The position numbers were made by a program, and so were the translations under genes. Under the pieces are notes generated by a model that ran no database searches, was not told the DNA's origin, and was given only the letters and a program-made list of their open reading frames with translations. This document shows positions 1 through 21,229 of a stretch of 34,277 bases of DNA, piece by piece. This stretch comes from a virus, in UHGV virus genome UHGV-0115522. One strand, given 5' to 3'. How positions within the stretch are numbered: the stretch's first letter is position 1; every line of letters starts with the position of its first letter.

Positions 1-861
1 CCATCAGCAAAAGGGGATGATAAGTTTATCACCACCGACTATTTGCAACAGTGCCCCCGAGGCCTACTAAAGGATATTGAGTCAAGCAATGTACTTACAG
101 TTGAGCAGCAGGCAGAGACAGATCAAATAGCAACGGCAGTAAACCAAATGGTGGCAAGCATTCAAGAGGTTGCGAGCAATGCACAGCATGCTGCAGATGC
201 GGCCGGAAGAGCAGACACTGAGACGGCATCTGGCCAGCGTCTGGTAGCCCACACAAGCCAGTCAATCACTGCCCTTGAAGGTGAAATTAGGCAAGCCACT
301 CAGGTTATTCATGAGCTTGAAGGTCAAAGTAACGAGATATCAAAAGTTCTTGACGTTATACGAGGGATCGCCGAGCAAACGAATTTGTTGGCACTCAACG
401 CAGCAATTGAGGCCGCGCGTGCTGGTGAGCAGGGGCGTGGTTTTGCTGTTGTCGCCGATGAGGTTCGCAGTCTTGCTGCTCGCACACAGCAATCGACAAC
501 GGATATTCAAAGCATGATCAGCGCTCTACAAGAGCGAGCGCAATCCGCTGTTACAGTCATGGAGCAAAGTAGTCGGCAAGCGCACACGAGTGTAGCTCAC
601 GCAGAGGAAGCAGCTACAGCTCTTGATGGAATTGGCCAACGCGTTAACGAAATTACCGACATGAACGCGCAAATAGCGACTGCGGTCGAGCAGCAGGGAG
701 CAGTAAGTGAAGACATAAACCGCAGTATTATCAATATACGCGATGCTGCTGATACCAATGTACAGACCGGGCAGAATAATTTGCAAAGTGCGAAATCTGT
801 CGCTCAGTTAACTAGCGCTCTGAGCGAACTGGCAAAACAGTTTTGGGAAAAACGAGGATAA
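1..861 (+). CDS. Methyl-accepting chemotaxis protein, C-terminal signalling domain; 5' end lies outside the window
   Basis: Frame 1 is open from base 1 (listed start at 43 is TTG). Translation contains the conserved MCP signalling motif [36 protein letters not shown]. Stop at 859-861. Confidence 0.85.
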
Positions 862-2750: not shown

Positions 2751-2867
2751 ATATTTATGGTGACATATGAGAAAGGATTTCAACATCGATGGAAAATATG
2801 TAGGGCTGTCTGTAAGCACTAATATTCAGTCGCCAGCCGTCATTGTCACTGTAAAGCGAGCGATAGA

Positions 2868-3077
2868 ATGCCTGATATTGATTCAATATCCGTTGCGTTC
2901 CCTGTCAAAAGTATGCGTGGTGCTGAACATTTCGTGATGAATGCCACCGAGGAAGAAACACGGCGCGGTTTTGCTAAAGTGATGTCTGAGTTTGGCGAAT
3001 TTTTGGGGCACGTTGACAAAGCCCTCTCAATCAGTTCAGCAAGGTCCAAAGCGTTAACAACTTCCATGATGAAATAA
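2868..3077 (+). CDS. Hypothetical small protein between cre and ref (position of c8 in P1 as I recall)
   Basis: 69-aa ORF in the cre-ref interval; weak ribosome-binding site; no motif recognised. Confidence 0.4.
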   Translation: MPDIDSISVAFPVKSMRGAEHFVMNATEEETRRGFAKVMSEFGEFLGHVDKALSISSARSKALTTSMMK

Positions 3078-3226: not shown

Positions 3227-3324
3227 CTATAATTGAGCCGCAGTTTTTGTCAACTACGAAGACGTTGCCATTACTTCACTCCTTGACATCATTGGCGGCC
3301 ATTAGGCCGCCTTTTTTTTGCCAT

Positions 3325-3885
3325 ATGAAAACAATCGAACAAAAAATTGAACAGTGCCGCAAGTGGCAGAAGGCAGCCAGAGAACGAGCGATCGCTCGGC
3401 AACGGGAGAAGTTGGCTGATCCGGTCTGGCGAGAATCTCAATATCAGAAAATGCGGGATACTCTCGACCGCCGTATCGCTAAACAGAAAGAGCGCCCACC
3501 AGCCAGCAAAACGCGGAAAAGCGCGGTAAAAATAAAATCTCGTGGCTTGAAGGGGAGAACACCAACGGCGGAGGAACGGCGCATCGCCAATGCTCTTGGC
3601 GCTCTCCCCTGCATTGCCTGCTATATGCATGGAGTAATATCTAATGAGGTGTCTCTGCACCATATCGCCGGTCGTACCGCGCCGGGTTGTCATAAAAAGC
3701 AATTGCCACTTTGTAGATGGCACCACCAGCATGCAGCTCCGGCTGAAGTAAGAGCAAAATACCCCTGGCTGGTCCCTGTTCATGCCGATGGTGTGGTTGG
3801 AGGCAAGAAAGAATTCACCCTGCTGAACAAGTCAGAGATGGAGTTACTGGCTGACGCCTATGAGATGGCAAACATCATGCACTAA
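3325..3885 (+). CDS. ref: Ref (recombination enhancement function), HNH-type endonuclease
   Basis: 186-aa translation from ATG 3325 (MKTIEQKIEQCRKWQKAARERAIARQREKLADPVWRESQYQKMRDTLDRRIAKQKERPPASKTRKSAVKIKSRGLKGRTPTAEERRIANALGALPCIACYMHGVISNEVSLHHIAGRTAPGCHKKQLPLCRWHHQ...) matches P1 Ref from memory. The listed 3247 start is an upstream in-frame extension. Confidence 0.85.
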   Translation: MKTIEQKIEQCRKWQKAARERAIARQREKLADPVWRESQYQKMRDTLDRRIAKQKERPPASKTRKSAVKIKSRGLKGRTPTAEERRIANALGALPCIACYMHGVISNEVSLHHIAGRTAPGCHKKQLPLCRWHHQHAAPAEVRAKYPWLVPVHADGVVGGKKEFTLLNKSEMELLADAYEMANIMH

Positions 3886-4073
3886 TAAATATATTATTTT
3901 TAATGATAAATGATTGACAACTGACAAGTGACTTCAGTCAGAATCATCACATGCCCGGTACGGATGGATCCCCTTTCAAATATTCCATGGACGGCACAGT
4001 CTGAGTACCGGGCGCTACCTTCAGTTGTATTGCTAAGCCGCCGCTGGTGGCTTTTCTTTTTTGTAGGGGCGCT

Positions 4074-4718
4074 ATGGATAAGAAAATATGCGTTGTTTCA
4101 ATGAGCGTCGGCAAACCGGCGTCAATGACTGCTGCATGGATCAACAATGAGCTGATAATGGCTGAGCGGACCAGCTACCCTGAACGCCGCCGCGATATGG
4201 AACTCCAGCTGCTGCGCGAATTGCGAGAAAAAGAGGAAAAGGGTTTTATCGTGCTGGTGGAAGAGGAAAACAGCTTTATTACCGGTCGAGTTGGCCAGCG
4301 TGTAAGGTTGCGTGATCCCTTCATGAACGGCAGGCCGGTACTAATTGAAGCAATGCAGATTTACAAGGAGTTGGAACGCCAGAAAGCGATCAAGTTACCG
4401 CGCAAGGAATCCGGCAAATACATCCTCCACCAAAGCATCTTCGATTCCGAACACGATAAAAAAGGCGATGAGTTTTTCAACATCAACTGGAGCGAAATAA
4501 CGACAGAGCATGTTCTGACGTTGTTATGCTGCTTCGCAACAGAATACAACAACGTGGTAAGCGCAGACTACATCAGGACAATGACAGACACCGTTACTAA
4601 ACAAGACAACGAATATTCACCATATGAGCCATTTGTAAATATGATAAAAGCATTTTATCGGATGGAGCTCACTAAAGTTCCTCAAGGTAAATTAACAGGT
4701 AAGGATAACATCTTTTAA
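4074..4718 (+). CDS. Hypothetical protein (position of mat in P1 as I recall)
   Basis: 214 aa from ATG 4074 (MDKKICVV...) with AGGGG ribosome-binding site; listed ORF starts 27 nt upstream at a non-ATG codon. Confidence 0.6.
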   Translation: MDKKICVVSMSVGKPASMTAAWINNELIMAERTSYPERRRDMELQLLRELREKEEKGFIVLVEEENSFITGRVGQRVRLRDPFMNGRPVLIEAMQIYKELERQKAIKLPRKESGKYILHQSIFDSEHDKKGDEFFNINWSEITTEHVLTLLCCFATEYNNVVSADYIRTMTDTVTKQDNEYSPYEPFVNMIKAFYRMELTKVPQGKLTGKDNIF

Positions 4719-4771
4719 GCACAGTAATGAGGTGCTTAGATGTTCATATCAATATCCTAACTCTCTGCATC

Positions 4772-5461
4772 TCATAAATCTGATAGCCACTTACTATCTA
4801 TGGACTCAATCTCCGTCAGCGGAATTGATGGGAAAAAATATCCCTGAGCGCCCCATAGCCCTATCCCTTTTGATAACTTATGGCAATCAATGTTTTCGAC
4901 GCCTTCAGCGATGATATTCGGACATAACTTTTTTAAATTGCTAATAATGACATCAAAATGAGGCTTAATCATATGCTCTTGAAAAAATGACTTATCAAGT
5001 TTTATTGCATGATATTTATTTTTAATTAATGCTTTCATGGTGGCGTTACCACTTCCAAAATCATCAAGCCAAACATTATCTGTCAAAGTCAGTAGAAAGG
5101 ATATGATGTAATCCTCATCGCTTAAATCAGGATAGTTTTCTGATATCTCAATCGCTATAAATTTATTGTTTATTAGTAGTTCTTGAATTTGTTTATTGCC
5201 ATATATATATAAACAGGTATCATAATCTGCATTGATAGAGCATAATATATTATGGCATTCAAAAAAATACTTATACTTGATTATTGTGTTAAGTTGAGAT
5301 TTTAGCAAGTTAATCTTCATCTTGCTTGTAAACATACCTAATACTTTCTGAGTAGAAAGAATAGCCCCCTCGTTGGAATAAAATCTGCTCAACACTTCCA
5401 CTGCTATCAACTTGTTAGTGCTTGTGGAAATGATTGGTTCTACTATGTAGATAACTTCCAT
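4772..5461 (-). CDS. Standalone EAL-domain protein, predicted c-di-GMP phosphodiesterase
   Basis: 229 aa with EAL signature positions in order: EVL (in AVEVLSRF), EISE, DDFGSGNAT, IKLDKSF, IIAEGVEN, AQGYFF. GAGGG-type SD upstream of ATG. Gene is visibly AT-rich relative to the P1-like flanks. Confidence 0.8.
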   Translation of the reverse strand: MEVIYIVEPIISTSTNKLIAVEVLSRFYSNEGAILSTQKVLGMFTSKMKINLLKSQLNTIIKYKYFFECHNILCSINADYDTCLYIYGNKQIQELLINNKFIAIEISENYPDLSDEDYIISFLLTLTDNVWLDDFGSGNATMKALIKNKYHAIKLDKSFFQEHMIKPHFDVIISNLKKLCPNIIAEGVENIDCHKLSKGIGLWGAQGYFFPSIPLTEIESIDSKWLSDL

Positions 5462-5683
5462 GCTCCCACCCTCTATTTTTAAATTGGTTGGCTTTAGCAG
5501 ATAAAGTGCCCTTTATATTTACAGGGGTTACACACTATGTCAATTTATTTATCTGTAGTGAAATTGATAAAAATTAAATAATAAAAAGCAGCAACTATGA
5601 CACAAATCAATATTTTTATTTTTTGCACAACTTCTTGATTTCAGTGCTGCTGTATCTCTATTCTTGTTCAAAGCCTCTTTAGA

Positions 5684-6417
5684 ATGGTGGTAGCTATGTC
5701 AGGAGTCTGTTACTTCATCCTTATAAAGAAACCGATAAATTTTCAATTTCTTAAGGATTTCTTAATATTAAATTATGGTGATGTGCTGTTGCTTAAACAT
5801 TCTGAACGCGAATTCTTACAAACCTATTCAGATAAATATATCGAATTCGAACTTAATGATAGTGCTGTAAGAAACTATTTATCTTGTCACAATCACCAAG
5901 GGAAGCAACTTCTGGATAAATGCCCACATTTGCTAAAAAAGTCTTTTGCTTATCCTGATTTATTAATCAGGATGATCGATAATATAAGTGACCAGAATCA
6001 TATACATCCTGATTTTAAGGATGCTTTAACTTTTTCATTACTTTCAATTTTTAGTGATGTTGACAACCTTAGAGCTTTTCTTAAGTCTGGTATGCCTACT
6101 TTCTCAGGGAAAGTACGCAGCATATTTCTTTCAGATGTATCTAAACATTGGAAACTAAGAGACTTAACTGATTATCTATACATAGTGAGAGTTTAATAAA
6201 GAAAAAACTCTTATTAGAAAACACCTCCTTCAGTAAGTTATTACTTGATACACGAATGGCTTTTGCTATTAAATTACTAAAGCAAACCCGCCCCCTCAAA
6301 CAAGTATCAAAAAGTTGTGGTTTTAGTAGCATATCGTACTTTGTGTGCCTATTTAGGCAGTATTATAATTGTACACCATGTGAATATGTAAAACATCAGT
6401 TATCATCTGGGAAATAA
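5684..6417 (+). pseudogene. AraC-family transcriptional regulator interrupted by a frameshift
   Basis: Frame 2 ORF (5684-6196) ends with the first helix of an AraC HTH (KHWKLRDLTDYLYI). Frame 1 continues from about 6172 to stop 6415-6417 with the rest of the domain (SESLIKKKLL...LDTRMAFAIKLLKQTRPLKQVSKSCGFSSISYF...YYNCTPCEYVKHQ). The shift is near 6181-6190 and not in a homopolymer. Confidence 0.55.
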
Positions 6418-6455
6418 GATGCATTTATCTCCCAGATAGTATTGTAATATTAAAC

Positions 6456-6704
6456 TCAGTCAGCATTTAGTAGCAGAGCATTATCTATGATGATCTGCTC
6501 CCATTCTTCGAATGCCCGGTCGCGGACGCCCTGGGGAACGCTGTTTGTTTTGAAATCGACGACCGTCCGCCATTTCCCGTCCGGACGGTACATGCGCAGA
6601 GCTTTACTTCCCCCTTCCCTGCGCACCTCAACGTTATGCTTGTCAGCAAACTCTTGTAATGCTCGTAGCGTCCCATGCTTTACTGTGTAGTATCGCTTTT
6701 TCAA
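6456..6704 (-). CDS. lxc: Lxc/Bof-like C1 co-repressor (tentative)
   Basis: 82-aa ORF; size and position (downstream of the darB-like gene, same strand) fit P1 lxc/bof as I recall. Assignment rests on synteny and length, not a verified alignment. Confidence 0.5.
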   Translation of the reverse strand: MKKRYYTVKHGTLRALQEFADKHNVEVRREGGSKALRMYRPDGKWRTVVDFKTNSVPQGVRDRAFEEWEQIIIDNALLLNAD

Positions 6705-7141
6705 GTTTTCTCTCCAGCCTGTGCCAAGGCTTCAACTTCCAAATCGTAAGACTCAAACTCATAGTCCTGGTCGTCAACTTCTTCAGGGACTGGCAGTAAA
6801 TGCCAGGCTGAGTATATCTGACCATTATCAAAACGCTCCTGGCTGTAGAGCGTCGCGGCTATGAGTGTTAGCGCCGGGCGGTCATAACGGTAAAATTTGC
6901 GAACGTCACGGTCAACGAGACGACCGAAATTACCATAACCGCGCTCCAGTAATAATTTTTTAATTTCCGGCCAGTATGGGCCATAGCTGCGGTACAGGCG
7001 GGGATTTTTCAGTAATCGCCCGCGTAGCCCTGACAGGAAGAAATCAACGTATTCGTCTTCTGTCTTTCCTAACAACGCTGTACGGAGTACCGCCTCAAGA
7101 TATGTTTTATTCGGTTTTATTGTATCAGATAGTGTGGCCAT
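6701..7141 (-). CDS. Hypothetical protein (position of ulx in P1 as I recall)
   Basis: 146-aa ORF overlapping the next gene by 4 nt (translational coupling); no motif recognised. Confidence 0.5.
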   Translation of the reverse strand: MATLSDTIKPNKTYLEAVLRTALLGKTEDEYVDFFLSGLRGRLLKNPRLYRSYGPYWPEIKKLLLERGYGNFGRLVDRDVRKFYRYDRPALTLIAATLYSQERFDNGQIYSAWHLLPVPEEVDDQDYEFESYDLEVEALAQAGEKT

Positions 7142-7174
7142 ATTATGCGACGCCCGGCGAACCGGGCGCTCCTG

Positions 7175-10100
7175 TTATGCGTATTGTTGGATGACGGCCA
7201 GAACGTCCGCCACGTTGTGTTTTGTCTCGATAATCCACCAGTTGCCCGGGAAATCGCTGTTCTTCGCCTTCGCTGGCAGCCAGCGAGCGCCGAATTTTTT
7301 CTTGATTGCGTCTTTAGCACGGAAAAGAACGCCTTTCATGCCGGACGCCTCCTGAAGCCCAAATACCTCACCAGCTGCGAATTTTGGTGCGTACATCATC
7401 TTCAGGTCGGCGGTGGATACGCGATAATTCAGACCAAGAGACTGAGCTATGCTGGTGGCATCACCCTGTATTGATGATAACTCTTCTTGTTTCTCGTTTC
7501 TGGCGGCAATTTCTTCCTCCGTGATGTTGCCTAGGGCCAGGTTTATCCGATCAGCGTCGGCCTGTTTCTCTTCATCGGTGCGCCCGGCAAGAACCGTGTT
7601 AATTCTCTGCAATATCTCAACATGATTCTTGCGCATGCTAAGCAATTCCGGCGTAACCTCGTTAAGGTCCACCAGCCCAAGGATGGCAAGGTCGGAAAAC
7701 ATTGATACCAGGTTGTAGGTCATGCGATAGCTGAGTTGCCCATAGGCTGATGGCAACTGCACCGCATCCATTTGATAGGCATCCATAAATTTAGAGCCGT
7801 CGTTTACGACATCCGCAATTGCCGGTGTGATTTTCCCTGTGGTGGCGACCTCCCTGATTGCTGTTACCCACGATTGAGTCAGCGCGGCGACTGCATGATT
7901 CAGATTGGCTTTCCGTTCTGCTGCAATACGCGCGCTTGCAGCGTCCATTGCCTGCTTGATCTCGTCTTTATTGCTGTAAATGCCAATGGTGCCAAACTGT
8001 GCTGTGGTGATCTCATAATCTGACGCCCGGAACTCATGGGTACCGAAAATGGCATTGGTGACCTCAAGTTCAGAATCCCCGTTACGAGTAGCCCCCTGGC
8101 TTGTTTTCTCCGGCATTCTGGCGATCGCATCCGCTATTTTCTCCTGAATTGCTTCAGGGGATAGCGTATCTCCGTATGACGCGATTACTTCGCCATAATT
8201 GGAGCCAAACAGTTCAGTCAGGAATACTTCTGCCAAACGGACCTGGCGGTTATTCCCTTCCGACATCATACCAAGCACCCATTTTGCAATTGACGACTTC
8301 AGCGCGCCGTCACGGCGATCCTGGTAAACCGCATGCTTCAGTGGGTCCGTATAGGTACCAACAAAATCAATGCTATAGCCTGACTCTGTAGTCTGAACGC
8401 CGTATGAGTCAGTGATTTTGATCATGCCGCGCTGCTGGAAACGGTAGAAATCGTCACAGGAAATGATGTCGTTAATCCCGGCGATGGAGACGCCACCACT
8501 GATTTTCTGCATAACAGCATCTTCATCGGGAGTTACATCCACCTGTTTATCCAGCGTCTTCACATCCCAGTTACCCGATTTGGTGCCTTTGAAGGTAAAG
8601 ATGATCTCCACGTCTGCGCGCTGGCTGTCGAAGTCCAGCGACTTAATGCGAACGATATCACCGGCACAATCGTAGTATTGGCCTACACGCCATGAGCGAT
8701 CGCCGATAACAAGGAACTCATTCGCATGGTTAACCAGATCAGGATCAACATCCAGAATGCCTTTATTTATTGCATCCTCCACCAGCGGGCGCAGGCGTTT
8801 GATATCCGTCGCGGCCTTCTGAGTACGGTTCAATAATTTCTCATAGCGGGAGATGGCTTGAGTGATATTAGCCTTGCGCTGAATGGCGCTTTTCAACGAC
8901 GCGCGATAATGTGCTAACAACGTACGGTCTGTGTGATGGACGCTACCCCAGCGGGCCTTCCAGTCTGCATTATCAGCTGCTTTGGCCATTACCGCCTGTT
9001 TAAATTTAGCTACCTCGGCGGTGGTCTTTTCAAGTTCCGCTTTACTTCGCTCTAATTCAGCGGTAAGAGCCGCAACATCCTCGCCAGCTGCATGTTGCGC
9101 CTTGATGTAGTTCTGAAGGTCGATAGCGGCCTGTTCTTTCTGGCGGGCGCGTTGCGCGGCTTTCGCCTTATCCATTTGAACCTGCATCATTGCCAGACGT
9201 TCGCCATCATCCTTAGCGGTATACATCTGCATTTCGATCATATCGTTGGCGTCGGCGTTCTCCATTTCTGACTTATCTGAACGGAGGATATCGGAGATCC
9301 AGCCTGCTTTACGCTTCAGCGTCTTCAGTCGGTATTCATCGAAAGAACCCTTGCCGCAGTAGTAATGAACGCGAACGCTTGCACGGTTGGAGCCAACTCG
9401 GGCACCGCGACCGTTACGCTGTGCGACACTGGCTGGTGTCCATGGCAACGTCAGATGATGGATGTCAGTCGTTCCTCGATGCAGGTTGATACCCACCTCT
9501 GCCTTTTTGTTGCAGATGATGATCGGAGTCCGGCCCTCCTGGAAGTCGGCTGCAATCTTTTCCAGACCGCCCAACGACATTTCATTTTGCTGCGCGATAT
9601 AGGCGTCATACAGAGCCATTTGCTCGTTGTATTTCGCTATCTGTGCATCTGTTGGTTCATCCGGTAACTCTTTCGGCGGTTTAACCGCTTTCAGTTTCTT
9701 ACCGGTTTTACCTGCCTCGGCAACCGTCTGAGCATTCAGGATCCTTACCTTTGAAGGTTCAAGGTTAAGAGCATTGCAGATAATGCGCTTGAGCTTCTGG
9801 TGCTGCGTTTTTTCGTCGGTGAAGATGATTTGCTTCCCTTCCGGGAAAAACTCCTTCAGCGTGGCAATCAGCTTCGCGTATTTGGGCGTAACGGGGTGAG
9901 TTACGGTCTGTTCGTCAATGCCAAACCTGGCCAGGCGCTTATTCACTTCCTGCTCGAACGCTTCCGGAACCTGCAACTGAATAAACTCGCCCTTATCTAT
10001 CAGGGAGTATTGCGATTGCTGCGTGATTGAATCATCACTGTCGTCGTCTTCGCTGGTGGCTTGTTTAGGCAAACTGTCCGCCAGCTGCTGCACCGCATCG

Positions 10101-11200
10101 GCGTACTCCGGCAGGAAACGATAGGTGATCCGGCGATAGTACAGGTCCATGTCAGTACATACGCGGTCCATATCCCTGATTATTGAGAAGATCGGACGGG
10201 CTTTCTCGTGCTCAATCACTCCGTCTTCATCGACCGAGGTCGTTACGCCATTGTTGGCTTTGGCCACCGCTTCCGCCTGCTGGCGTAATTCTTCATACGC
10301 CGCCAGTTGTTCTTCAGTAAGTGGTGCATCCTGCTGGTGTTCGTCCAGTTCCGGGATCTCCACGGTATCCTTAACGTCTTCCGCCGTTTTAAGCGTTGTC
10401 CAGCGATGGAATATGCCGCGCAGCGCATCAAGGTTTTCAAAGCCCACCAGCGCCATTTTTTCTTCAACTTCACCGCTGATTTTCTGTACCGTTTCCAGCC
10501 TGGTCTTGCCGAAGAATTTAACGAAGTCATCAGGACCGTAGATCCCCATCTTCTGCCAGTATTCCTTCGGCAGCACATGAGAAAGCATGTTGTATGCATC
10601 GATCGGGGTGTTAACGACTGGCGTTGCAGTCAGGAGAACCGGTCCGCGCCCACCATTCTTTTTCATCAGGTACGCGTTTTTAATTGCCATATCCCGCGCC
10701 GATTGCGCCACCGCGCTGGTGGGCAGATAGGCCAGTTGTGACGCTTCGCGACCATTTTTATAGCTATTGCGGTAGTTGTGACCTTCGTCAGCGATCACAC
10801 TATCGAAGCCCATATCCTCAAAGTACGGATACTTCTCTGCTTTTTCGGTACCGGTATCTGAATACTCCGACAATACCCGGCGACGCGCGGCCTCTTTGCG
10901 GTGGGAGTCGGAGTCCATTGCGCTGGCTACGCGCCCGGCGGCAACGAAGTCATAAAGCATATCCTGTGCATGCTCATCTACGGTGTCATCACGTAGCGGA
11001 GTGCGGGCGTATTGTTCTTTGGTAAACACGACTGCACGGTAATTTGAGTGCGGGATCGCGTTCATCCGCGCCGTGATAGTGGCTTCATCTGCCAGTTTTA
11101 GGGCATCGCGCATAACTGGAGTGCCATCAGTACCAAGAACAGGAGCACCTCCCACGCTAACGCGCGGGCCCCGAATCTCACCGTTCTGAAACCACAACAA
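7175..11200 (-). CDS. DarB-like superfamily-2 helicase, apparently missing its 5' portion
   Basis: 1341-aa ORF with helicase motif II (VIADEGHNY), motif III (LLTATPVVN) and motif VI (QRNGRGARVG), but no Walker A (GxGKT) in the 135 aa before DEGH. Frame closes at 11207-11209 just upstream of a TTG start. Long C-terminal extension. Confidence 0.65.
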   Translation of the reverse strand: MLWFQNGEIRGPRVSVGGAPVLGTDGTPVMRDALKLADEATITARMNAIPHSNYRAVVFTKEQYARTPLRDDTVDEHAQDMLYDFVAAGRVASAMDSDSHRKEAARRRVLSEYSDTGTEKAEKYPYFEDMGFDSVIADEGHNYRNSYKNGREASQLAYLPTSAVAQSARDMAIKNAYLMKKNGGRGPVLLTATPVVNTPIDAYNMLSHVLPKEYWQKMGIYGPDDFVKFFGKTRLETVQKISGEVEEKMALVGFENLDALRGIFHRWTTLKTAEDVKDTVEIPELDEHQQDAPLTEEQLAAYEELRQQAEAVAKANNGVTTSVDEDGVIEHEKARPIFSIIRDMDRVCTDMDLYYRRITYRFLPEYADAVQQLADSLPKQATSEDDDSDDSITQQSQYSLIDKGEFIQLQVPEAFEQEVNKRLARFGIDEQTVTHPVTPKYAKLIATLKEFFPEGKQIIFTDEKTQHQKLKRIICNALNLEPSKVRILNAQTVAEAGKTGKKLKAVKPPKELPDEPTDAQIAKYNEQMALYDAYIAQQNEMSLGGLEKIAADFQEGRTPIIICNKKAEVGINLHRGTTDIHHLTLPWTPASVAQRNGRGARVGSNRASVRVHYYCGKGSFDEYRLKTLKRKAGWISDILRSDKSEMENADANDMIEMQMYTAKDDGERLAMMQVQMDKAKAAQRARQKEQAAIDLQNYIKAQHAAGEDVAALTAELERSKAELEKTTAEVAKFKQAVMAKAADNADWKARWGSVHHTDRTLLAHYRASLKSAIQRKANITQAISRYEKLLNRTQKAATDIKRLRPLVEDAINKGILDVDPDLVNHANEFLVIGDRSWRVGQYYDCAGDIVRIKSLDFDSQRADVEIIFTFKGTKSGNWDVKTLDKQVDVTPDEDAVMQKISGGVSIAGINDIISCDDFYRFQQRGMIKITDSYGVQTTESGYSIDFVGTYTDPLKHAVYQDRRDGALKSSIAKWVLGMMSEGNNRQVRLAEVFLTELFGSNYGEVIASYGDTLSPEAIQEKIADAIARMPEKTSQGATRNGDSELEVTNAIFGTHEFRASDYEITTAQFGTIGIYSNKDEIKQAMDAASARIAAERKANLNHAVAALTQSWVTAIREVATTGKITPAIADVVNDGSKFMDAYQMDAVQLPSAYGQLSYRMTYNLVSMFSDLAILGLVDLNEVTPELLSMRKNHVEILQRINTVLAGRTDEEKQADADRINLALGNITEEEIAARNEKQEELSSIQGDATSIAQSLGLNYRVSTADLKMMYAPKFAAGEVFGLQEASGMKGVLFRAKDAIKKKFGARWLPAKAKNSDFPGNWWIIETKHNVADVLAVIQQYA

Positions 11201-11209
11201 AAAAAATCA

Positions 11210-11720
11210 GGAATAAAAAACACCACACAAACACAGCACTGTACCCCCCCTCATAACTGAAAAGCGCCGCCGCCCCCGCCCGAAGGGCGGGAACAACATC
11301 GCTTTTAATTATGAATGTTGTAAGTACATTGTCATCGCTGTCAGTCTTCTGGCTGGAAGTCCTCAGTACACGCTCGTAAGCGGCCCTCACGGCCCGCTAA
11401 CGCGGAGATACGCCCCGACTTCGGGTACACCCTCGTCGGGACCACTCCGACCGCGCATAAAGGCTCTGTCATGGCTGAAAACGGGTATGGCTTAGCAGGG
11501 CCGGGGGTGGGTAAGGTGAAATCTATCAGTCAGTACCGGCTTACGCCGGGCTTCGGCGGTTTTACTCCGGTATCATATGAAACAACAGAGTGCCGCCTTC
11601 CATGCCGCTGGCGCGGCATCAGGACAATTGAAGAGTGACGGCGCACATTAACATCAAACAGACTTGTTAAGCAGTCTTTCAGGGTGTAATCTGAAGACCT
11701 GTTAAATAGTCTCAGAGGTG
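11210..11720. other. GC-rich, hairpin-dense noncoding segment at the darB break
   Basis: No convincing ORF. Perfect hairpin cccgccc-gaag-ggcggg (about 11276-11292), cccgac/gtcggg (about 11414-11440), atgccgc-tggc-gcggcat (about 11592-11609) and a near-palindrome cagtctttcag/ctgaagacctg just upstream of stbD. Confidence 0.3.
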
Positions 11721-11724
11721 TGTT

Positions 11725-11976
11725 ATGCCCAGTATCATTTTGTCTGACACCAGTGCAAGCGTCAGTGAGCTGAAAAAAAATCCGATGGCAACTGTCAGTG
11801 CCGGAGAGGGGTATCCTGTTGCCATTCTTAACCGGAATCAGCCAGCATTCTACTGTGTCCCTGCTGAGCTCTATGAAAGAATGCTTGATGCCTTGGATGA
11901 CCAGGAGCTGGTAAAACTGGTTACTGAACGCAGCAGTCAGCCTCTGCATGATGTGGACCTGGACAGTTATTTATGA
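11725..11976 (+). CDS. stbD: RelB/StbD-family antitoxin
   Basis: 83 aa (MPSIILSDTSASVSELKKNPMATVSAGEGYPVAILNRNQPAFYCVPAELYERMLDALDDQELVKL...) matches plasmid StbD antitoxins from memory; overlaps the toxin gene by 4 nt (ATGA). Confidence 0.85.
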   Translation: MPSIILSDTSASVSELKKNPMATVSAGEGYPVAILNRNQPAFYCVPAELYERMLDALDDQELVKLVTERSSQPLHDVDLDSYL

Positions 11977-12260
11977 CTTATACAGTAAAATTCCGGGATG
12001 ATGCACTGAAAGAATGGCTCAGACTGGACAAGACCATTCAGCAGCAGTTCGCAAAAAAACTGAAAAAATGCAGTGAAAATCCTCATATAGCTTCTGCAAA
12101 ACTACGTGGATTAAAGGACTGCTATAAAATCAAACTTCGCGCATCAGGTTTTCGTCTGGTTTATCAGATTATTGATGATATGTTAATTATTGCGGTCGTC
12201 GCAGTAGGTAAACGTGAACGCAGCAACGTTTATCATCTCGCCAGTGAACGGATGAAATAA
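11973..12260 (+). CDS. stbE: RelE/StbE-family toxin (mRNA interferase)
   Basis: 95 aa (MTYTVKFRDDALKEWLRLDKTIQQQFAKKLKKCSENPHIASAKLRGLKDCYKIKLRASGFRLVYQIIDDMLIIAVVAVGKRERSNVY) with RelE/ParE-fold hallmarks; coupled to the antitoxin. Confidence 0.85.
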   Translation: MTYTVKFRDDALKEWLRLDKTIQQQFAKKLKKCSENPHIASAKLRGLKDCYKIKLRASGFRLVYQIIDDMLIIAVVAVGKRERSNVYHLASERMK

Positions 12261-13119
12261 TATCCTGGTCAGCACTCTTTCTTACCTGCTTCCATTTTTT
12301 CAGTGATTCTTTTCCTGCATGCAGAAAAAAAGCCTACCCTGTGGGCAGGCATAACAGACAATCGCACAGTCAGTGTTGAAATTAATGATGTCACGCATTA
12401 TACCCGGTGGATACACAAACCATCCCTGCAAATGCATTGGCATCCTAATCAACGTCTGAAACAACTGCAATGGCCGGACCTGTGATTTCAGAGAAAGTTA
12501 TTATGTTTATTGAATATAACCGAAGTGATAAATAAAAGTATTATCACCTTTAATATTTATGCTTATTGCGTGGTTTTATCTGGTTATATAAAGCACAGAT
12601 GTTCTTATTATTTTCTGAAAAATAACCATATGGATCGATTTCCCCCACCCAGCCGAAGCGGTTCGGCTCGTTCGGCGTATCGTCGACACTGAAGCGCTTA
12701 TCCATTTCGTTCCAGCGGTAAGAGTTGTCGCTGTCGCTGACGAATGCCATCGGGTCGCTAAACAGCGTGATCCGCCATGCGATCAAAAAGCGTAAGTGTT
12801 TCCGACAGACGAGCCGGTGAAAAAAGTGGTGTGTCTGGCAATACAGGCATCGTCCCCGAAATGGACGATGCCGTTGAAGGACTGGGGTATGGCAATAAGC
12901 CGCTTTATTATCGGATTCAGTGACCGCCTGGACGGTTACTTTTGAGAAAAGGCATTTACACACAATCCTAAACAGACTCCTATATTTCAGATTTTGTTAT
13001 CAACGCATTTCAAATCTCTTAGAAATCATTACTGTCGTCATATTTTCCGAGGCAGCTCACCACCTAACTATGTCTTATCAACAATATTTTGTGAAGGATA
13101 TTTATAATGTAAAGACACA

Positions 13120-16100
13120 TCAGAAACGATATTCCACACTCAACATGGCAGATGTATTATGGTATCCATGTTCTCCAAGTTGAATGCCTGCATCAGCCCG
13201 GAATGCTACTTCTGGTGTTATCATTCCCACAACACCACCATTTATTTCTCCGATATCACGCGCACCATCCTGGTATATACTTACACCATTCATACTGGTG
13301 CCGAAAACACGACTATTGTGCAACCAGTGTGCCTCCACAAATGGTCTGAACGGAACCGCATACCGCGTATTTTTACCGTTTTTGCTGGTAAGCCATGTTC
13401 TTGCTCCCAGGCGGGTGAGAATATTTCCGTTACCGGTATTTTCAATACTGGTTCCGTTACTTTCATGATATTTGTCTGATTTTACATTCATCCGGACAAC
13501 CTGAAGCTGCGGCTGAACATACCATTCATGACTTCCCTTGTAATTGTCGGTAAACTCTCCAGCCTTCCATGAATATCCTGCTTCCAGAGATACCGTAAAC
13601 CCTTTTGACTTCCATGACTCAGCAGGCAGCCGTTCTCCATTTATATGATTATCAAACCAGCTGTATTGCAGCCAGCTATCAAGATAAGAACCATTGTGTG
13701 TTTCATCATTGGCATACCATGTTGCATAAAGACCCGCTGTGTATCCATTCATTCTTCCTTCCGAATGGTATCCGGTGCTCAGGGCATTCGTACTGTTATT
13801 ATTATGACCATAGCCAGCCATCATACCTGTATGCCAGCGATCGGTACCATTCAGGCTCCACTGAGCTATATCTCCCCCTATTAACACAACGTAGCTATTC
13901 CCCCGGGTTCTCAGCTGACTACTGTTGTCACGCCAGCGATTATGTTTTCCTTTATTATACATCCAGATACCTGCTTCATTTTCTTCTCCTGTCATGTGGC
14001 TGATATACAACTCCTGTCCCTGTCGTTCATACAGATTCGTTACAAACAGATTATTTGCAGCAGCAATACTGGCAACATAGCTACCTGCCTCAGGACGCAA
14101 ATTATTATCATGGCTTTCCGGTACAGCTTCAGGTTGTGGTACAGGAATGTCTTTTCTGCTAATCAGATACCAGTTAGTGCTGTTAATCCCCTGACCACGT
14201 TTCAGTATGTAATCATAAGCTCCGGCTGTAATACGTTCCGTCTGAATGAATTCAGCATTATCAGCATTGCCACTGACGTGAATCACTTCAATCCCATTAA
14301 GTGTCTCTGCACCAGTACCACCGGCCTGAGTAACAGCGACACGGGTACGGCCACTGGCATTACCTTTAATCACCAGACGATCTGTTTTCGAATTGTCACC
14401 ACCTGTTTCTGTCTGGAGGAGAATAAGTCCATTTCTGCCAGTGTAATTCCCTCCGACAGTCAGTATATTACCCGGCATATATGTAGTGAGATCGACTATA
14501 CCACTATTGCTCAGATTTCCTGCAACGCCCCCAAACCCGGAGAGTTTGCCCTGCTCTTCAACAATGACCTGGTTACTGCCGAGCATCACCGGTGAATCTG
14601 CGTTCCCCAGTATCACTGTCCCCTGAATAATATCTGTCATCCCGGTCCATTTTGCGTTATCGCTAATGTTCAGTGCACCTGCTCCCGTCTTGCGAACATT
14701 ACCATAACCACTGATATTGTTGGTAAGCTGCCATGCTGATGTACTGTTCAGAGTTAATGTGCCATAGTTATCAACAAAGGCTGTCCCCAGATTATCAGCC
14801 GTGGATACAGCCAAATGAGCCCCCTTATTCACGGTAAAAACACCGGAAAAATTACGATTATTACCCGTTATATCAAGCATTCCCCCATTTATGTTCAGAG
14901 AACCATCCCCTGCAATAGTACCTGCAGATTCTCCTCCATTATTCAGTATCAGGCTTCCGCCATGAATGTTCAGCACAGAGCCTGCAGCCGTCAGTAGTTT
15001 GCTTATTGTCTGAGGATACCCATTCATATCCAGTTCTGCGCCACGGGATAAATATAAATACTCAGTCCGACCAAGAGCATCAGGTGCAGCAAGAATTAAT
15101 ACGCCAGATTTAACCTCTGTATTTCCTGTATAATTGTTTGTTGCAGAAAGTATAAGAGTACCATTACCTGATTTTGTCAGACTTTTGCCGTCCCAGCCAT
15201 CATATAATAAAGGTGAAAGATTATCGGAAAGAGAAACGCCTATGTTCAGAGTGGCATCTTTTTCTATATTAAAGGTTCCATATCCCATCCCTTTTGTATT
15301 ATTCCATCTCAGCATGGATATCAGTTTGTTATCGTCGTCATTTAAAGACGTATAAACATAACTTTCAGCACCTTCTGTCAGTAATGCATTGTATTGTACA
15401 ATGTGACTATTATCAGCGATCGAGATACCTGTGTCTGACGACAATAATGTGTAATAGTCCTGAGTCCAGTTCTTAATTGATGTGTCTATATTAAGCCATG
15501 AATCACTTTTTAATGTAATAGTATTTGCGTGAACATTAGCATTTCCTACAGACAGGTTCATAGATGCGTCTTCATCAATACTTATATTTCCGTTAAAAAT
15601 GGAGTTCTTGCCTGACAGATAAACAGATGAGCCATTCCCAATCATTAGCCCACCATTAATTGCTGTTGCGTTATTGATGTTTTTAATAATTAATTCATTT
15701 GTACCATTAACAGGTATACTAGCTAGTTTAATATCACCATTAATCACAGAATCTGAATAAATATCTAATGAATTATACCCGCCAGAAAAAATTATTGATG
15801 TATTATAAGCATCTTTTTGGCTATTATATAATCCTGAAAGATTACCATGATTACTAATATGGATATCTTCTCCATAAACAGAGCAACCACCGTCGGGGCC
15901 ATATCCCCCCTGAACAATACCGTTATTATTCAAAGTGATTTGATTTCCAGAAATAGCATCTCCCCCTTGTTTTATTCCATATCCTCCAGATATCATGTTG
16001 CCGTTAGTAATGAAAAGATTACTACCATTAATACCATCACCACCGTTTACGCCATTACCGCCCAATATTCCTCCGGAATTATGCACTGTAATATTGCTAC

Positions 16101-16617
16101 CGGTTACACCGGAACCACCTGTCCCACCTACATCATCACCTCCGTATATACTTCTGTAATTATCAACTATAATATCATCCCCGCTTAACCCTGCACCTCC
16201 GCTACTTCCTGAGCCACCAAGACCATTACCCCCATATACATTTCTGTAATTGTTTATAGATATTTTGTTGCCACTAACAGCAATTCCACCATTATATCCA
16301 TCGCCTCCCCAAACACTACCATTATTATTTAGCGTAAAGTTTTCACCGTAGACACCTGCACCACCGATTGATGTATTGCTTGTTCCTCCTTTGATGTTAA
16401 TACTGCTTTCAACAGATAGTATATTTTGAGTATAACTTGTTTTATACGGCACGCTGATATTAAGCGCCGCGTTTCCATCAACACCTGTAATACTCCTGGT
16501 TATACTTTCAGGTATACCATTACCATTCAGTTGTATTGTTTGCGCACCAGAAAAATGAGACTGCACAGAATAAATTATACTGACCAGAAATTGTAAAATT
16601 CGTATATTCTTATTCAT
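13120..16617 (-). CDS. Autotransporter (type Va) with AIDA/pertactin-like glycine-rich passenger and C-terminal beta-barrel
   Basis: 1165 aa. N-terminal signal peptide (MNKNIRILQFLVSIIYSVQSHFSGAQT), long passenger with reiterated GG-x-G-x-NG-type repeats, and a C-terminus ending ...SAMLSVEYRF typical of outer-membrane barrel closure. AT-rich. Confidence 0.85.
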   Translation of the reverse strand: MNKNIRILQFLVSIIYSVQSHFSGAQTIQLNGNGIPESITRSITGVDGNAALNISVPYKTSYTQNILSVESSINIKGGTSNTSIGGAGVYGENFTLNNNGSVWGGDGYNGGIAVSGNKISINNYRNVYGGNGLGGSGSSGGAGLSGDDIIVDNYRSIYGGDDVGGTGGSGVTGSNITVHNSGGILGGNGVNGGDGINGSNLFITNGNMISGGYGIKQGGDAISGNQITLNNNGIVQGGYGPDGGCSVYGEDIHISNHGNLSGLYNSQKDAYNTSIIFSGGYNSLDIYSDSVINGDIKLASIPVNGTNELIIKNINNATAINGGLMIGNGSSVYLSGKNSIFNGNISIDEDASMNLSVGNANVHANTITLKSDSWLNIDTSIKNWTQDYYTLLSSDTGISIADNSHIVQYNALLTEGAESYVYTSLNDDDNKLISMLRWNNTKGMGYGTFNIEKDATLNIGVSLSDNLSPLLYDGWDGKSLTKSGNGTLILSATNNYTGNTEVKSGVLILAAPDALGRTEYLYLSRGAELDMNGYPQTISKLLTAAGSVLNIHGGSLILNNGGESAGTIAGDGSLNINGGMLDITGNNRNFSGVFTVNKGAHLAVSTADNLGTAFVDNYGTLTLNSTSAWQLTNNISGYGNVRKTGAGALNISDNAKWTGMTDIIQGTVILGNADSPVMLGSNQVIVEEQGKLSGFGGVAGNLSNSGIVDLTTYMPGNILTVGGNYTGRNGLILLQTETGGDNSKTDRLVIKGNASGRTRVAVTQAGGTGAETLNGIEVIHVSGNADNAEFIQTERITAGAYDYILKRGQGINSTNWYLISRKDIPVPQPEAVPESHDNNLRPEAGSYVASIAAANNLFVTNLYERQGQELYISHMTGEENEAGIWMYNKGKHNRWRDNSSQLRTRGNSYVVLIGGDIAQWSLNGTDRWHTGMMAGYGHNNNSTNALSTGYHSEGRMNGYTAGLYATWYANDETHNGSYLDSWLQYSWFDNHINGERLPAESWKSKGFTVSLEAGYSWKAGEFTDNYKGSHEWYVQPQLQVVRMNVKSDKYHESNGTSIENTGNGNILTRLGARTWLTSKNGKNTRYAVPFRPFVEAHWLHNSRVFGTSMNGVSIYQDGARDIGEINGGVVGMITPEVAFRADAGIQLGEHGYHNTSAMLSVEYRF

Positions 16618-17201
16618 ACTGTTTTTTCTTTAGTGATGCATTTTTTATCAACCATACAAGCACATTATTTCATTGATACTAATCACATCAGGATGAATGT
16701 TTTTTCTCAATAGAAATAAGTGTCTTTATTTCTTACCAATTTATTCTGGTTATTCCTCTTATCCAGACGTCTCGTGATACTCCCTGTATTTATTATAGAG
16801 TATATATATGTACTGCGTTTAAATCATGAAGACGACAACCTGTTTTACATAAATTATTCCTAAGTATTTTTCCAGAGAAGACCTAGGTATAATGATGTGC
16901 ACTGTCTGGTTTTCTTACAACTGACTTAGCGATCTGCATATCCGTGATAACGCCTGAATAAATAGGACGAGAGAACTCTTAACCAAATAATCTAACACTT
17001 TTAATCGACAGGAATTAAAAACCCGGGGAGGTTAAAAAAACACAAAAAAATGGATGTTTATTCAACTCTGGTTACGTACCATGAGGACTGCATCCACAAT
17101 GCACCGGCAATTAAATGGCTTTCATTGATTGATTTTTTATATCTGTGATGATTTTTTGCTCCATTCCTCAAAAAATGGACGCAACTTCCCCTCTGCGGCT
17201 C

Positions 17202-17555
17202 TCAGCTGTATACCCGCTGTCGTGCCAGTGGCTCATGCATCATGACCAGCTCTGCCAGACGGTAGCCCCGCTTCAGCCCCGTAAACCGCATCTGACCTCC
17301 GCACAGGATGCACTTCAGCGGGTCAACCTTCAGTAACCGCTGATACACCCTTCTCCGCCTGATTTGCATCGCCGTTTTTCTCTCCGTTTCTGTTATGACG
17401 TACACAACATTTTCCAGTAACCGGCGCTTCACCGGACTCAGGAACCCGTTGTCAACGCCACGATGTTTGACCGTTCTGGGGATGCGGACGATTTCCTGGA
17501 CTGCTTTATCATTCCAGCCCGCATTGTTGGCGGTACATTTTGGGGCTGACTGCAC
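17202..17555 (-). CDS. C-terminal fragment of an unidentified gene cut by the adjacent IS (possible transposase remnant)
   Basis: 117-aa ORF whose 5' end overlaps the end of the IS3-family transposase. Contains CILCGG; family not recognised. Confidence 0.25.
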   Translation of the reverse strand: MQSAPKCTANNAGWNDKAVQEIVRIPRTVKHRGVDNGFLSPVKRRLLENVVYVITETERKTAMQIRRRRVYQRLLKVDPLKCILCGGQMRFTGLKRGYRLAELVMMHEPLARQRVYS

Positions 17556-19043
17556 CCGGCGATAATTTTATACGCCGCTCGTTATACCATCTGATGTAAG
17601 TATCCACTTGCTGCATGAACTTTTCTGGCGTGATGCCCGACCATTTACGCCCATAATACATTTCCGTTTTCAGTCTGCCGAAAAAGCCTTCGCATGCCGC
17701 ATTATCAGGTGAACATCCTTTGCGGGACATTGAGCGAATAAGACCTTCTGCATTCACTCTTTCCAGCCAGCCTGACCAGCGATAATGCCCACCTCTGTCA
17801 CTGTGTATCACCGGTCGTTCACCAGCATTTAACGTTTCGACAGCGCTATCCAGCATAGTGTTGACCAGTTCAGCATCGGGGCGTGTACTGAGAGACCAGC
17901 TCACAACTTTTCCATCGAAGCAGTCCACCACCGATGATAGCCAGACTTTACCTGCAGGGAGGTGGAACTCCGTGATATCTGTCAGCTATTTCTGATTAGG
18001 TTGCTCCGCCTTAAAATCTCTGGCGATAAGGTTATCCGGAGCCGGTCCGATTTCTCCGCAATATGAGCTGTAGCGGCGACGACGGTTACGGCTGACGACA
18101 AGCTGTTCTTCCACCATAAGTCTGCGTACAACCTTTTCTGATAGCCGCCCCCCCCCTCATGCCTGAGCATCGCATGCAGGCGACGATAGCCATAACACTG
18201 GTAATTACTGTTAAATATATCTGTCAGCATCGTACGTATCGTGGCGTATTTATCACCGGCTTTCAGTGCAGCCCGGTGATAAAAATAACTGCTACGGGCA
18301 AGGCCCAGAACATGCAGTAATTCTGTCAGGGGATATGTTTGTCTCAGGGCATCAGCGATCTTCGTTTTCTCTCTGTTGTTCAGGTGACTGATACTGATGC
18401 CCGGGTCTTTTTTTATGATTTCCTCCGCCTTTTTCAGAATATCCAGCTCCATCTGCCGGCGGCGTATTTCCTGATTCAGTCGGGCGACTTCCTCCCGCAA
18501 CGCATCGCGTTCTGCCTCCAGGGAAGGTTCGTTATGTTTACGCATAGTCTGGTAAGCACTGTTGCCGATAATTTTATCTTTCCATTTATACAATACCGCA
18601 CGACTGACACCAATACGCCTGGCGATTTCACTGGCTGATACTTGTCGTGTACAGAGTGCCATGACAGCCTGACGTTTGACTTCTGGTTCAAAGGGCGCAA
18701 CCGGGTTGGCCTTACTGGTAAATATACGTCGTCTGTCGGGATAAAGTTCATTAACCCAGCGAGCGAGTACATCAGTGCAGGGATAACCCAGGGCTCTGCT
18801 GGTAAACGCCAGGCAGCAGCCGTGGTTAAGATAATGTTCAACGGCAACCTGTTTTTGCTCATCGGAGTAACGGTGCTTATGACGAATGGATTCTTTTGCG
18901 CCACCACCTGCTTCCCATGAGCGGATCCAACGCCGCAGATTTCTTTTCGAAGGGTAGCCCAGTTCGCGTACGACGGGAGCCAGCTTCTTACCATATTTGA
19001 AATAAAGCTCAATGGCGCGGATTTTTTCTTCTTCAGTAAACAT
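17509..19043 (-). pseudogene. IS3-family transposase (OrfA-OrfB), disrupted
   Basis: ORF 17982-19043 has two HTH modules plus the OrfB N-terminus; ORF 17509-17931 has the DDE-integrase C-terminal part (HSDRGGHY...SPDNAACEGFF...WYNERR) in another frame. A 9-nt C homopolymer (18148-18156, G9 on the coding strand) lies in between. Confidence 0.65.
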
Positions 19044-19095
19044 GTTTTATCTCCTGAGAGTCCAGGAAATCGTCCGCATCCCCATTTACCGTCTT
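17509..19095 (-). mobile_element. IS3-family insertion sequence, degraded
   Basis: Boundaries approximate, set from the extent of the transposase ORFs and the start of the adjacent IS911-like element. Confidence 0.5.
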
Positions 19096-19108
19096 ATATC
19101 TGTAGTGG

Positions 19109-21229
<2,121 letters not shown>

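Follow-up and report, generated by a model that had tools for sequence, protein, structure and literature searches.

A mobile EAL-domain and AraC-type gene pair, predicted to act on cyclic di-GMP, in the mat-lxc hot spot of P1-like phage-plasmids

The virus genome UHGV-0115522 (34,277 nucleotides; this whole stretch of DNA is called the window here) is a P1-like phage-plasmid that carries, between mat and lxc, a divergent gene pair encoding a stand-alone EAL-domain protein and a regulator of the AraC type. Our preferred interpretation, to which we assign a probability of roughly 60%, is that the pair is a mobile two-gene module lodged in the mat-lxc hot spot and made up of a catalytically competent EAL phosphodiesterase and a divergently encoded AraC-type activator resembling Rns, GadX, and YdeO. 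The best reading of the EAL protein is that it comes from the enterobacterial "EAL-only" clade of PdeH, MrkJ, SfaY/PdeY, STM1697, and YdiV. The module is already in the databases yet is uncharacterized, and its EAL gene is a further member of a known EAL-only type.

The EAL gene is an intact, ATG-started open reading frame (ORF) of 229 amino acids at positions 4772 to 5461 on the minus strand. Its product matches the Pfam EAL profile (PF00563) with 64.4 bits against a gathering cutoff of 31.3, with residues 8 to 210 aligned to profile positions 18 to 233 of 236, and the original prediction of a stand-alone EAL protein, made from the DNA letters alone, was thus confirmed by profile search. The AlphaFold2 model (predicted local distance difference test score of 92.2 and predicted template modeling score of 0.89) has the EAL (beta/alpha)-barrel fold, and Foldseek aligned it with a probability of 1.00 and template modeling (TM) scores of 0.78 to 0.88 to YdiV, STM1697, YahA, RocR, and TBD1265. 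The 12 catalytic and substrate positions (E22, L24, R26, N77, E105, E108, D133, D134, K154, E186, E189, and Q206) read ELRNEEDDKEEQ and are identical at 12/12 to those of the active enzyme YahA/PdeL, and the motifs E-x-L-x-R, N, E-x-x-E, DD, K, E-G-V-E, and Q are all in register when the protein is aligned with YahA by profile, which agrees with the earlier claim of an intact catalytic signature. The signature positions other than R26 do not vary among 19 relatives, the most distant of which has 23% identity. Of the stand-alone relatives with more than about 31% identity, nearly all keep 12/12 or 11/12 of the signature positions; STM1697 and YdiV have substitutions at 5 and 8 of the 12, respectively, against none in the window protein. 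We therefore annotate the gene as a predicted cyclic di-GMP (c-di-GMP) phosphodiesterase on the basis of the Pfam match, the AlphaFold2 and Foldseek results, the catalytic positions, and the substitution ratios given below. More than 150 database records label the protein an "EAL domain-containing protein," and the PHROG family that it forms, phrog_32988, is labeled as being of unknown function.

One of the closest known systems is MrkJ of Klebsiella pneumoniae (238 amino acids), a regulator of type 3 fimbriae and a proven strong c-di-GMP phosphodiesterase (PMC3161979). Like the window protein, MrkJ is of similar size, has a single domain with a conserved catalytic motif, is often plasmid-borne, and is encoded beside a transcription factor. 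The window protein also has distant homologues encoded next to mrk-like or pap-like fimbrial operons. However, the two proteins share only about 27% identity, the partner is of the AraC type in the window but of the LuxR type for MrkJ, and neither fimbrial genes nor the PilZ regulator (MrkH) lies near the window gene. SfaY/PdeY and other fimbria-linked EAL-only proteins of pathogenic Escherichia coli are likewise stand-alone, horizontally acquired, and encoded by AT-rich genes; SfaY/PdeY keeps the catalytic set except for an R-to-D change in E-x-L-x-R, and function of the SfaY/PdeY type was shown on overexpression, according to the text citing that work in PMC5635171. The SfaY gene has a terminal position in sfa/pap/foc operons of chromosomal islands, whereas the window gene is on a phage-plasmid. 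The best NCBIfam model for the window protein is that of PdeH (YhjH) of E. coli K-12, and the EAL domain of YahA/PdeL from the same strain aligns over its full length with catalytic residues in register at about 26% identity. The same chemistry as that of PdeH and PdeL would be expected of the window protein, although the PdeH gene belongs to flagellar class 3 and PdeL has its own LuxR DNA-binding domain.

A fimbrial neighborhood recurs among the more distant relatives. Those at 43 to 49% identity lie beside, or within a few kilobases of, pap-like or type 1 fimbrial genes, and one of them adjoins a gene for a serine protease autotransporter of Enterobacteriaceae (SPATE); a relative at 35% identity adjoins a Pantoea fimbrial operon; MrkJ and MrkJ-like genes adjoining mrk fimbriae follow at 27 to 28%, and SfaY/PdeY at about 23 to 24%. 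The window itself has no fimbrial genes, and the adjoining chaperone-usher operons belong to relatives at 28 to 49% identity. SPATE genes were seen near EAL relatives twice. At locus L007 (6001 to 10696), a Peptidase_S6 (SPATE) gene is directly downstream of the EAL relative, between pap-like fimbriae and hlyCA, and on plasmid pETEC_74 (L021, 6073 to 12148), the SPATE gene eatA is separated from the EAL gene by the AraC partner. This may be a coincidence or may reflect a common virulence-island origin.

The partner gene, at 5696 to 6417 on the plus strand, encodes a regulator of the AraC/XylS family (Rns/GadX/YdeO-like) and is a pseudogene in the window. The ORF from the ATG at 5696 meets a stop codon at 6194 to 6196, and the helix-turn-helix part is in another frame, where HTH_18 and HTH_AraC match the piece from 6256 to 6417; tblastn recovered the gene in two frames. 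Alignment with intact alleles places a one-base deletion, of a G, at 6183/6184 (ACATGAGTGAG to ACATAGTGAG) in the motif DYLYMSES, which cuts the N-terminal domain off from the DNA-binding domain. The original prediction of a divergent AraC-family regulator thus stood as regards family, orientation, and the gene end at 6417 but missed that the gene is split. A sequencing error was rejected as the cause, since the exact 68-nucleotide allele is present in 82 independent PLSDB plasmids, no exact match was found for a repaired version, and the identical sequence carries the label "frameshifted" in RefSeq. Programmed frameshifting and phase variation were rejected as well, as the deleted G is outside any homopolymer or slippery run. 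Of 14 alleles of this class taken as a spread sample, about 10 were split.

An unbroken AraC ORF that joins the N-terminal domain to a C-terminal double helix-turn-helix is found at loci L003, L015, L019, L023, and L026 and in the IncF plasmid copies. The YdeO model (NF007407) matched over its full length with 126 bits against a cutoff of 348, the query being the allele of the laboratory P1 isolate OP279344 with its 21-nucleotide in-frame deletion; judged from such matches, the regulator appears to be related to the YdeO family without being an equivalog. Intact alleles also match the DNA-binding domain of GadX, Rns and CsvR over both domains, and ToxT. The activators of the Rns/CsvR/GadX/YdeO/AppY group are AT-rich and horizontally acquired like the window regulator, but the window type is shorter (234 to 243 against 253 to 276 amino acids), and in the window it is frameshifted. 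Fragments matching AraC residues 124/137 to 234 with 87 to 88% identity are present on many large plasmids of Escherichia coli, Salmonella, and Klebsiella, IncHI2-like and others, and look like remnants of the same module.

Both genes and the divergent control region between them (5462 to 5695) stand out in base composition. The G+C content (GC) is 0.328 for the EAL gene, 0.321 for the intergenic region, and 0.319 for the AraC gene, against 0.482 and 0.515 in the flanks, and the segment without homology to the reference P1 by blastn (4584 to 6459; GC of 0.325) has the lowest value among all 1,876-bp stretches of the 34-kb window. Nucleotide homology between the P1-type and IncF-type copies spans the two genes plus the spacer and no more (4769 to 6399), with about 73% identity to pETEC_74 of enterotoxigenic E. 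coli (ETEC) and two other IncF plasmids, and the IncF copies have a GC of 31%. The earlier suggestions that the pair is AT-rich compared with its flanks and was acquired separately therefore both find support, the first in these values and the second in the recurrence of the module on IncF plasmids. A transposon-borne cassette was rejected, since no direct or inverted repeats are present at its flanks.

Within the control region, aligned between P1-type and IncF-type copies, the AraC-proximal block of about 100 bp (approximately 5600 to 5695) is conserved and holds a candidate sigma70-like promoter picked by eye, TTGATT-18-TATTCT, and a GGTGG ribosome-binding site. A consensus scan for promoters and terminators gave nothing above the shuffled expectation, and an Rfam search of the control region found no c-di-GMP riboswitch or other known RNA. 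No C1 operator was found within 4584 to 6459, and the cassette is thus not wired into P1 immunity. Matches to the C1 operator consensus with at most three mismatches (0.2 expected by chance) were seen at seven places in the window: 1098, 1181, 3210, 23395, 23444, 25536, and 33862.

The location of the pair is itself informative. In the reference P1 (NC_005856), the order is mat, res and mod::IS5, and lxc. Blastn homology between the window and P1 ends at 4583, inside the 3' end of mat, and restarts at 6460, and the P1 counterpart of 4584 to 6459 is 3337 to 9753 (mat 3' end, res, and mod::IS5), meaning that 1,876 bp in the window take the place of 6,417 bp in P1. The left border is mat (maturation control; 4074 to 4718, plus strand; RefSeq annotation of an identical plasmid and PHROG phrog_1837), whose last approximately 135 nucleotides (4584 to 4718) are unlike the reference P1 and form part of the variable segment. 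The right border is lxc (modulator of C1; 6456 to 6704, minus strand), assigned from RefSeq, PHROG, and P1 synteny.

Comparison of this interval across P1-like elements, as the original prediction had proposed, shows that it is a hot spot known in 11 or more states, whose occupants are mostly known or candidate defense genes. Among 72 IMG/VR P1-like loci containing both mat and lxc, the occupant was SIR2-like (ThsA-like/PDC-S25) in 13, DUF2971 (PDC-S31) in 10, RelA/SpoT CapRel-like (PDC-S33) in 10, a GNAT gene in 9, the EAL and AraC pair in 5, PIN (PDC-S34) in 5, a small lipoprotein-like ORF of 135 amino acids in 3, a 3.6-kb insert containing JukA in 3, a YaaC plus deoxyribosyltransferase-like pair in 3, and a type III restriction-modification (R-M) system in 2; the interval was empty but for a terminator hairpin (41 to 51 bp) in 9. 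The GNAT gene, the lipoprotein-like ORF, and the YaaC pair are without defense annotation. In phage SJ46 (KU760857, 56103 to 58264), a RelA/SpoT gene is located exactly in the mat-lxc interval and is taken to be CapRelSJ46, a validated anti-phage system encoded by that phage (PMC9712102). Like the EAL/AraC pair, the EcoPI res/mod genes and CapRelSJ46 are AT-rich cargo inserted between the mat and lxc stop codons and swapped by recombination in the flanks; they are validated anti-phage systems, whereas the EAL/AraC pair has no known defense homology.

The pair does lie between mat and lxc, at the site where P1 has res and mod, as originally proposed, but a simple replacement of these genes was rejected in view of the many locus states and of Escherichia albertii plasmid pEA18_2 (L026/L028; NZ_CP117639, 48116 to 56018). 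This plasmid has the order mat, EAL, AraC, an lxc 3' remnant of about 100 bp, res, mod, and lxc, and the cassette is therefore able to coexist with an R-M system. The duplicated lxc fragment looks like a recombination scar between EAL-type and R-M-type P1-like elements. The P1 stock OP279344 ("Escherichia phage P1 isolate del res del mod"), used for infection assays, has the EAL/AraC cassette in the place of res and mod, 97.7% identical to that of the window.

The module is common on P1-like elements and is found on two kinds of replicon. PLSDB holds 694 plasmids with the 5' part of a P1-type mat, 150 plasmids with the EAL cassette (about 22% of the 694), and 108 plasmids with an EcoPI-like res. 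Over 1.76 kb, 95 plasmids have an identity of 99% or more. The close homologues (83 to 99% identity) are located on P1-like elements. In 5,426 complete E. coli genomes, the cassette was present in 146, at 149 plasmid places and 6 chromosomal ones. The original prediction had named an ordinary chromosomal gene pair as the finding that would make the cassette a hitchhiking fragment; this was rejected on the one full-length chromosomal match examined of the six places, in ST2747, which belongs to an integrated P1-like element, with c1, ref, mat, ulx, and darB around it. On IncF plasmids, the EAL protein has 65 to 69% identity to that of the window and its gene is always divergently paired with a 79%-identical AraC gene; one copy is beside eatA on pETEC_74 of ETEC E24377A, and others are beside ParE/RelB and IncFII repA. 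The gene pair is also conserved at L005, L006, and L013, as it is at L021.

Both genes have evolved under purifying selection. The ratio of nonsynonymous to synonymous substitution rates (dN/dS) was 0.10 to 0.15 for the EAL gene, including between two P1-borne allele groups, and 0.07 to 0.13 for the AraC gene, at dS values of 0.5 to 2, and rose to 0.3 to 0.6 in the shallow clade. The state of the genes nevertheless differs between elements. The EAL gene is intact and the AraC gene frameshifted in the window, L001, and L018; both are frameshifted in L002; the EAL gene is frameshifted and the AraC gene intact in phage Ro157c2YLVW (L003) and pEF-3 (L022); and in OP279344 (L004), an intact EAL gene accompanies an AraC gene whose 21-nucleotide in-frame deletion falls in the first helix-turn-helix. 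Both are intact in L015, L016, L019, L020, L023, L025 (with an IS3 in the spacer), L026, and all IncF copies, and the idea suggested by Ro157c2YLVW, pEF-3, and the window, that only one gene can be intact in P1, was rejected on those seven non-IncF records. Insertions of the elements IS1, IS3, and IS5 occur in several records. Both genes have been kept by long-term selection; in the P1 context, loss of either is tolerated.

In the mechanism that we propose, an intact AraC regulator would activate the shared AT-rich divergent promoters, which are probably H-NS-prone, and the EAL protein, once made, would convert c-di-GMP to pGpG with Mg2+ or Mn2+. Such hydrolysis would shrink the c-di-GMP pool of the lysogen and lead to more motility and less curli, cellulose, fimbriae, and other c-di-GMP-dependent surface structures. 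Since the regulator is dead in the window, the phosphodiesterase there would be silent or else made at a basal level with no coupling to its signal. Several observations weigh against this interpretation. The nearest solved proteins by sequence and fold are the noncatalytic STM1697 and YdiV, with YahA/PdeL and RocR ranking next. Loop 6 reads D134-F-G-S-G-N-A-T and departs from the canonical EAL motif, DFG(T/A)GYSS; its Y-to-N change is common to the whole EAL-only clade, degenerate members included. The score against the NCBIfam PdeH/YhjH equivalog model (NF008617) is 91.7 bits and does not reach the cutoff of 190. The regulator is inactive here and in most copies of its allele, and in other lineages frameshifts or insertion sequences interrupt the EAL gene itself, which indicates that selection in the P1 context is not strict and, with either gene broken in various lineages, that activity in any given element should not be assumed. 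A search of the literature found no characterization of the EAL protein and no enzymatic or phenotypic data on it or its close homologues.

The resemblance to STM1697 and YdiV raises the alternative that the EAL protein binds FlhD, blocks FlhD4C2, and represses flagella, independently of or in addition to c-di-GMP hydrolysis. STM1697 and YdiV neither bind nor hydrolyze c-di-GMP and act through FlhD binding (PMC5622320). They have the same length as the window protein, share the G-x-G-N-(A/S)-T flavor of its loop 6, and provide both its top PDB sequence matches (STM1697, with an E value of 3e-27 and 168 bits with the family profile, and YdiV) and its top structural matches (YdiV 3tlq, with a TM score of 0.88, and the STM1697-FlhD complex 5hxg); in one phage record, the same protein bears the automatic annotation "ydiV anti-FlhC2FlhD4 factor." The FlhD interface consists of V115, L116, L136, V147, F160, K167, L172, L173, K175, H176, and Y180 in STM1697 and includes F155, F168, F181, and A184 in YdiV (PMC5622320). 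Mapped onto the window protein, the 11 STM1697 contacts correspond to S114, D115, F135, I146, F159, K166, V171, I172, S174, N175, and L179, of which F159 and K166 are identical and about five are conservative, F135, I146, V171, and I172 among them. However, the polar contacts K175 and H176 are lost to S and N, V115/L116 have become S/D, the position matching STM1697 L172 (171 here) varies among close homologues (V/G/E/D/A), F159 falls within the K-x-D-x-x-F motif universal to EAL domains and so is not interface specific, and YdiV F181 sits in a four-residue insertion that the window protein lacks. The catalytic residues lost by STM1697 and YdiV are all kept here and conserved family-wide, a pattern that a pure binding protein leaves unexplained, and we consider a purely YdiV-like mechanism very doubtful.

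There are two further alternatives. The cassette could be a decaying passenger in this element, with a silent EAL gene that contributes nothing and an abundance that reflects the clonal spread of one P1-like lineage. An activator frameshift outside repeats and fixed in 82 identical alleles, the AT-rich DNA, the splitting of most sampled alleles of the class, the EAL frameshifts and IS1, IS3, and IS5 insertions, the raised dN/dS in the shallow clade, and the near identity of the 95 plasmids would all fit. We nevertheless regard this as unlikely, as most records by far have an intact EAL ORF, the deep dN/dS between two P1-borne allele groups is about 0.1, and both genes are intact in the P1-like L015, L016, L019, L020, L023, and L026. 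The cassette could instead, compatibly with catalysis, have been selected as an anti-phage or counter-defense module, either because depletion of c-di-GMP removes c-di-GMP-dependent phage receptors or surface structures and so gives superinfection exclusion or because cyclic-dinucleotide immune signals are degraded. The company in the hot spot is mostly validated or candidate defense (EcoPI type III R-M, CapRelSJ46, SIR2-like/ThsA-like, PIN, DUF2971, and JukA), and the neighboring ulx and darB are anti-restriction genes. Infection of E. coli by phage N4 also needs c-di-GMP, and the catalytic activity of the phosphodiesterase PdeL confers protection, but global lowering of c-di-GMP by PdeH gave limited N4 protection (PMC8669472). 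Neither protein had a match among the PADLOC-DB v2 defense models at an E value of ≤0.01, the similarity to the cGAMP-degrading VcEAL (46 bits) does not stand out, and one of the two genes is often inactivated. In addition, IncF virulence plasmids carry the module next to eatA and to toxin-antitoxin or replication genes, and relatives lie next to fimbrial operons, contexts that fit a role in host physiology. Selection for defense is therefore, in our judgment, quite improbable. The same holds for its more specific form, a new prophage-encoded exclusion or counter-defense module in which the regulator senses a cue and the phosphodiesterase collapses c-di-GMP or degrades another cyclic dinucleotide, stripping receptors or matrix or blunting nucleotide-based immunity; this has a similarly low probability, although it would explain the competition for the slot with EcoPI, CapRelSJ46, SIR2-like, PIN, and Juk genes.

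Reports of genes for c-di-GMP turnover on phages are rare; a review notes that phages have few known c-di-GMP genes and that plasmid-borne EAL-only proteins exist (PMC10333796). This cassette is present in about one-fifth of the PLSDB plasmids with a P1-type mat (150/694). An active cassette would amount to a common factor of lysogenic conversion for motility, biofilm, and adhesion. It is also a clear case of gene exchange between phage-plasmids and IncF virulence plasmids. Its location in a defense hot spot makes it a candidate that can cheaply be tested for c-di-GMP-based phage exclusion, and tests are easy because natural alleles with an intact pair, a dead regulator, or a dead enzyme exist.

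Among the other genes of the window, those upstream of mat include cre (1685 to 2716) and ref (3247 to 3885), and downstream of lxc is ulx (6701 to 7141, minus strand; Ulx-like anti-restriction, PHROG phrog_1629), followed by a truncated darB remnant (7175 to 11200, minus strand) that keeps the C-terminal helicase part of about 1,300 amino acids and lacks the methyltransferase N terminus. The region from 11200 to 21200, after the remnant, is non-P1 cargo: a small ORF pair that reads, by look only, like a PhD/YefM-RelE toxin-antitoxin system (about 11726 to 12260, plus strand), an AIDA/pertactin-type autotransporter of 1,165 amino acids (13120 to 16617, minus strand), and IS3-like and IS30-like transposase genes (17982 to 21167, minus strand). 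The lysogeny establishment gene c8 (2767 to 3077, plus strand) is seemingly frameshifted, with overlapping ORFs of 56 and 69 amino acids; RefSeq lists the c8 counterpart as frameshifted in pJNQH497-2, a plasmid that is a 100% match over the 4700 to 6460 query only. Just upstream of the cra/cre region, a 272-amino-acid ORF (43 to 861, plus strand) has the signaling domain of a methyl-accepting chemotaxis protein (151 bits), an unusual cargo for a P1-like element and one related to motility, as the EAL gene may be.

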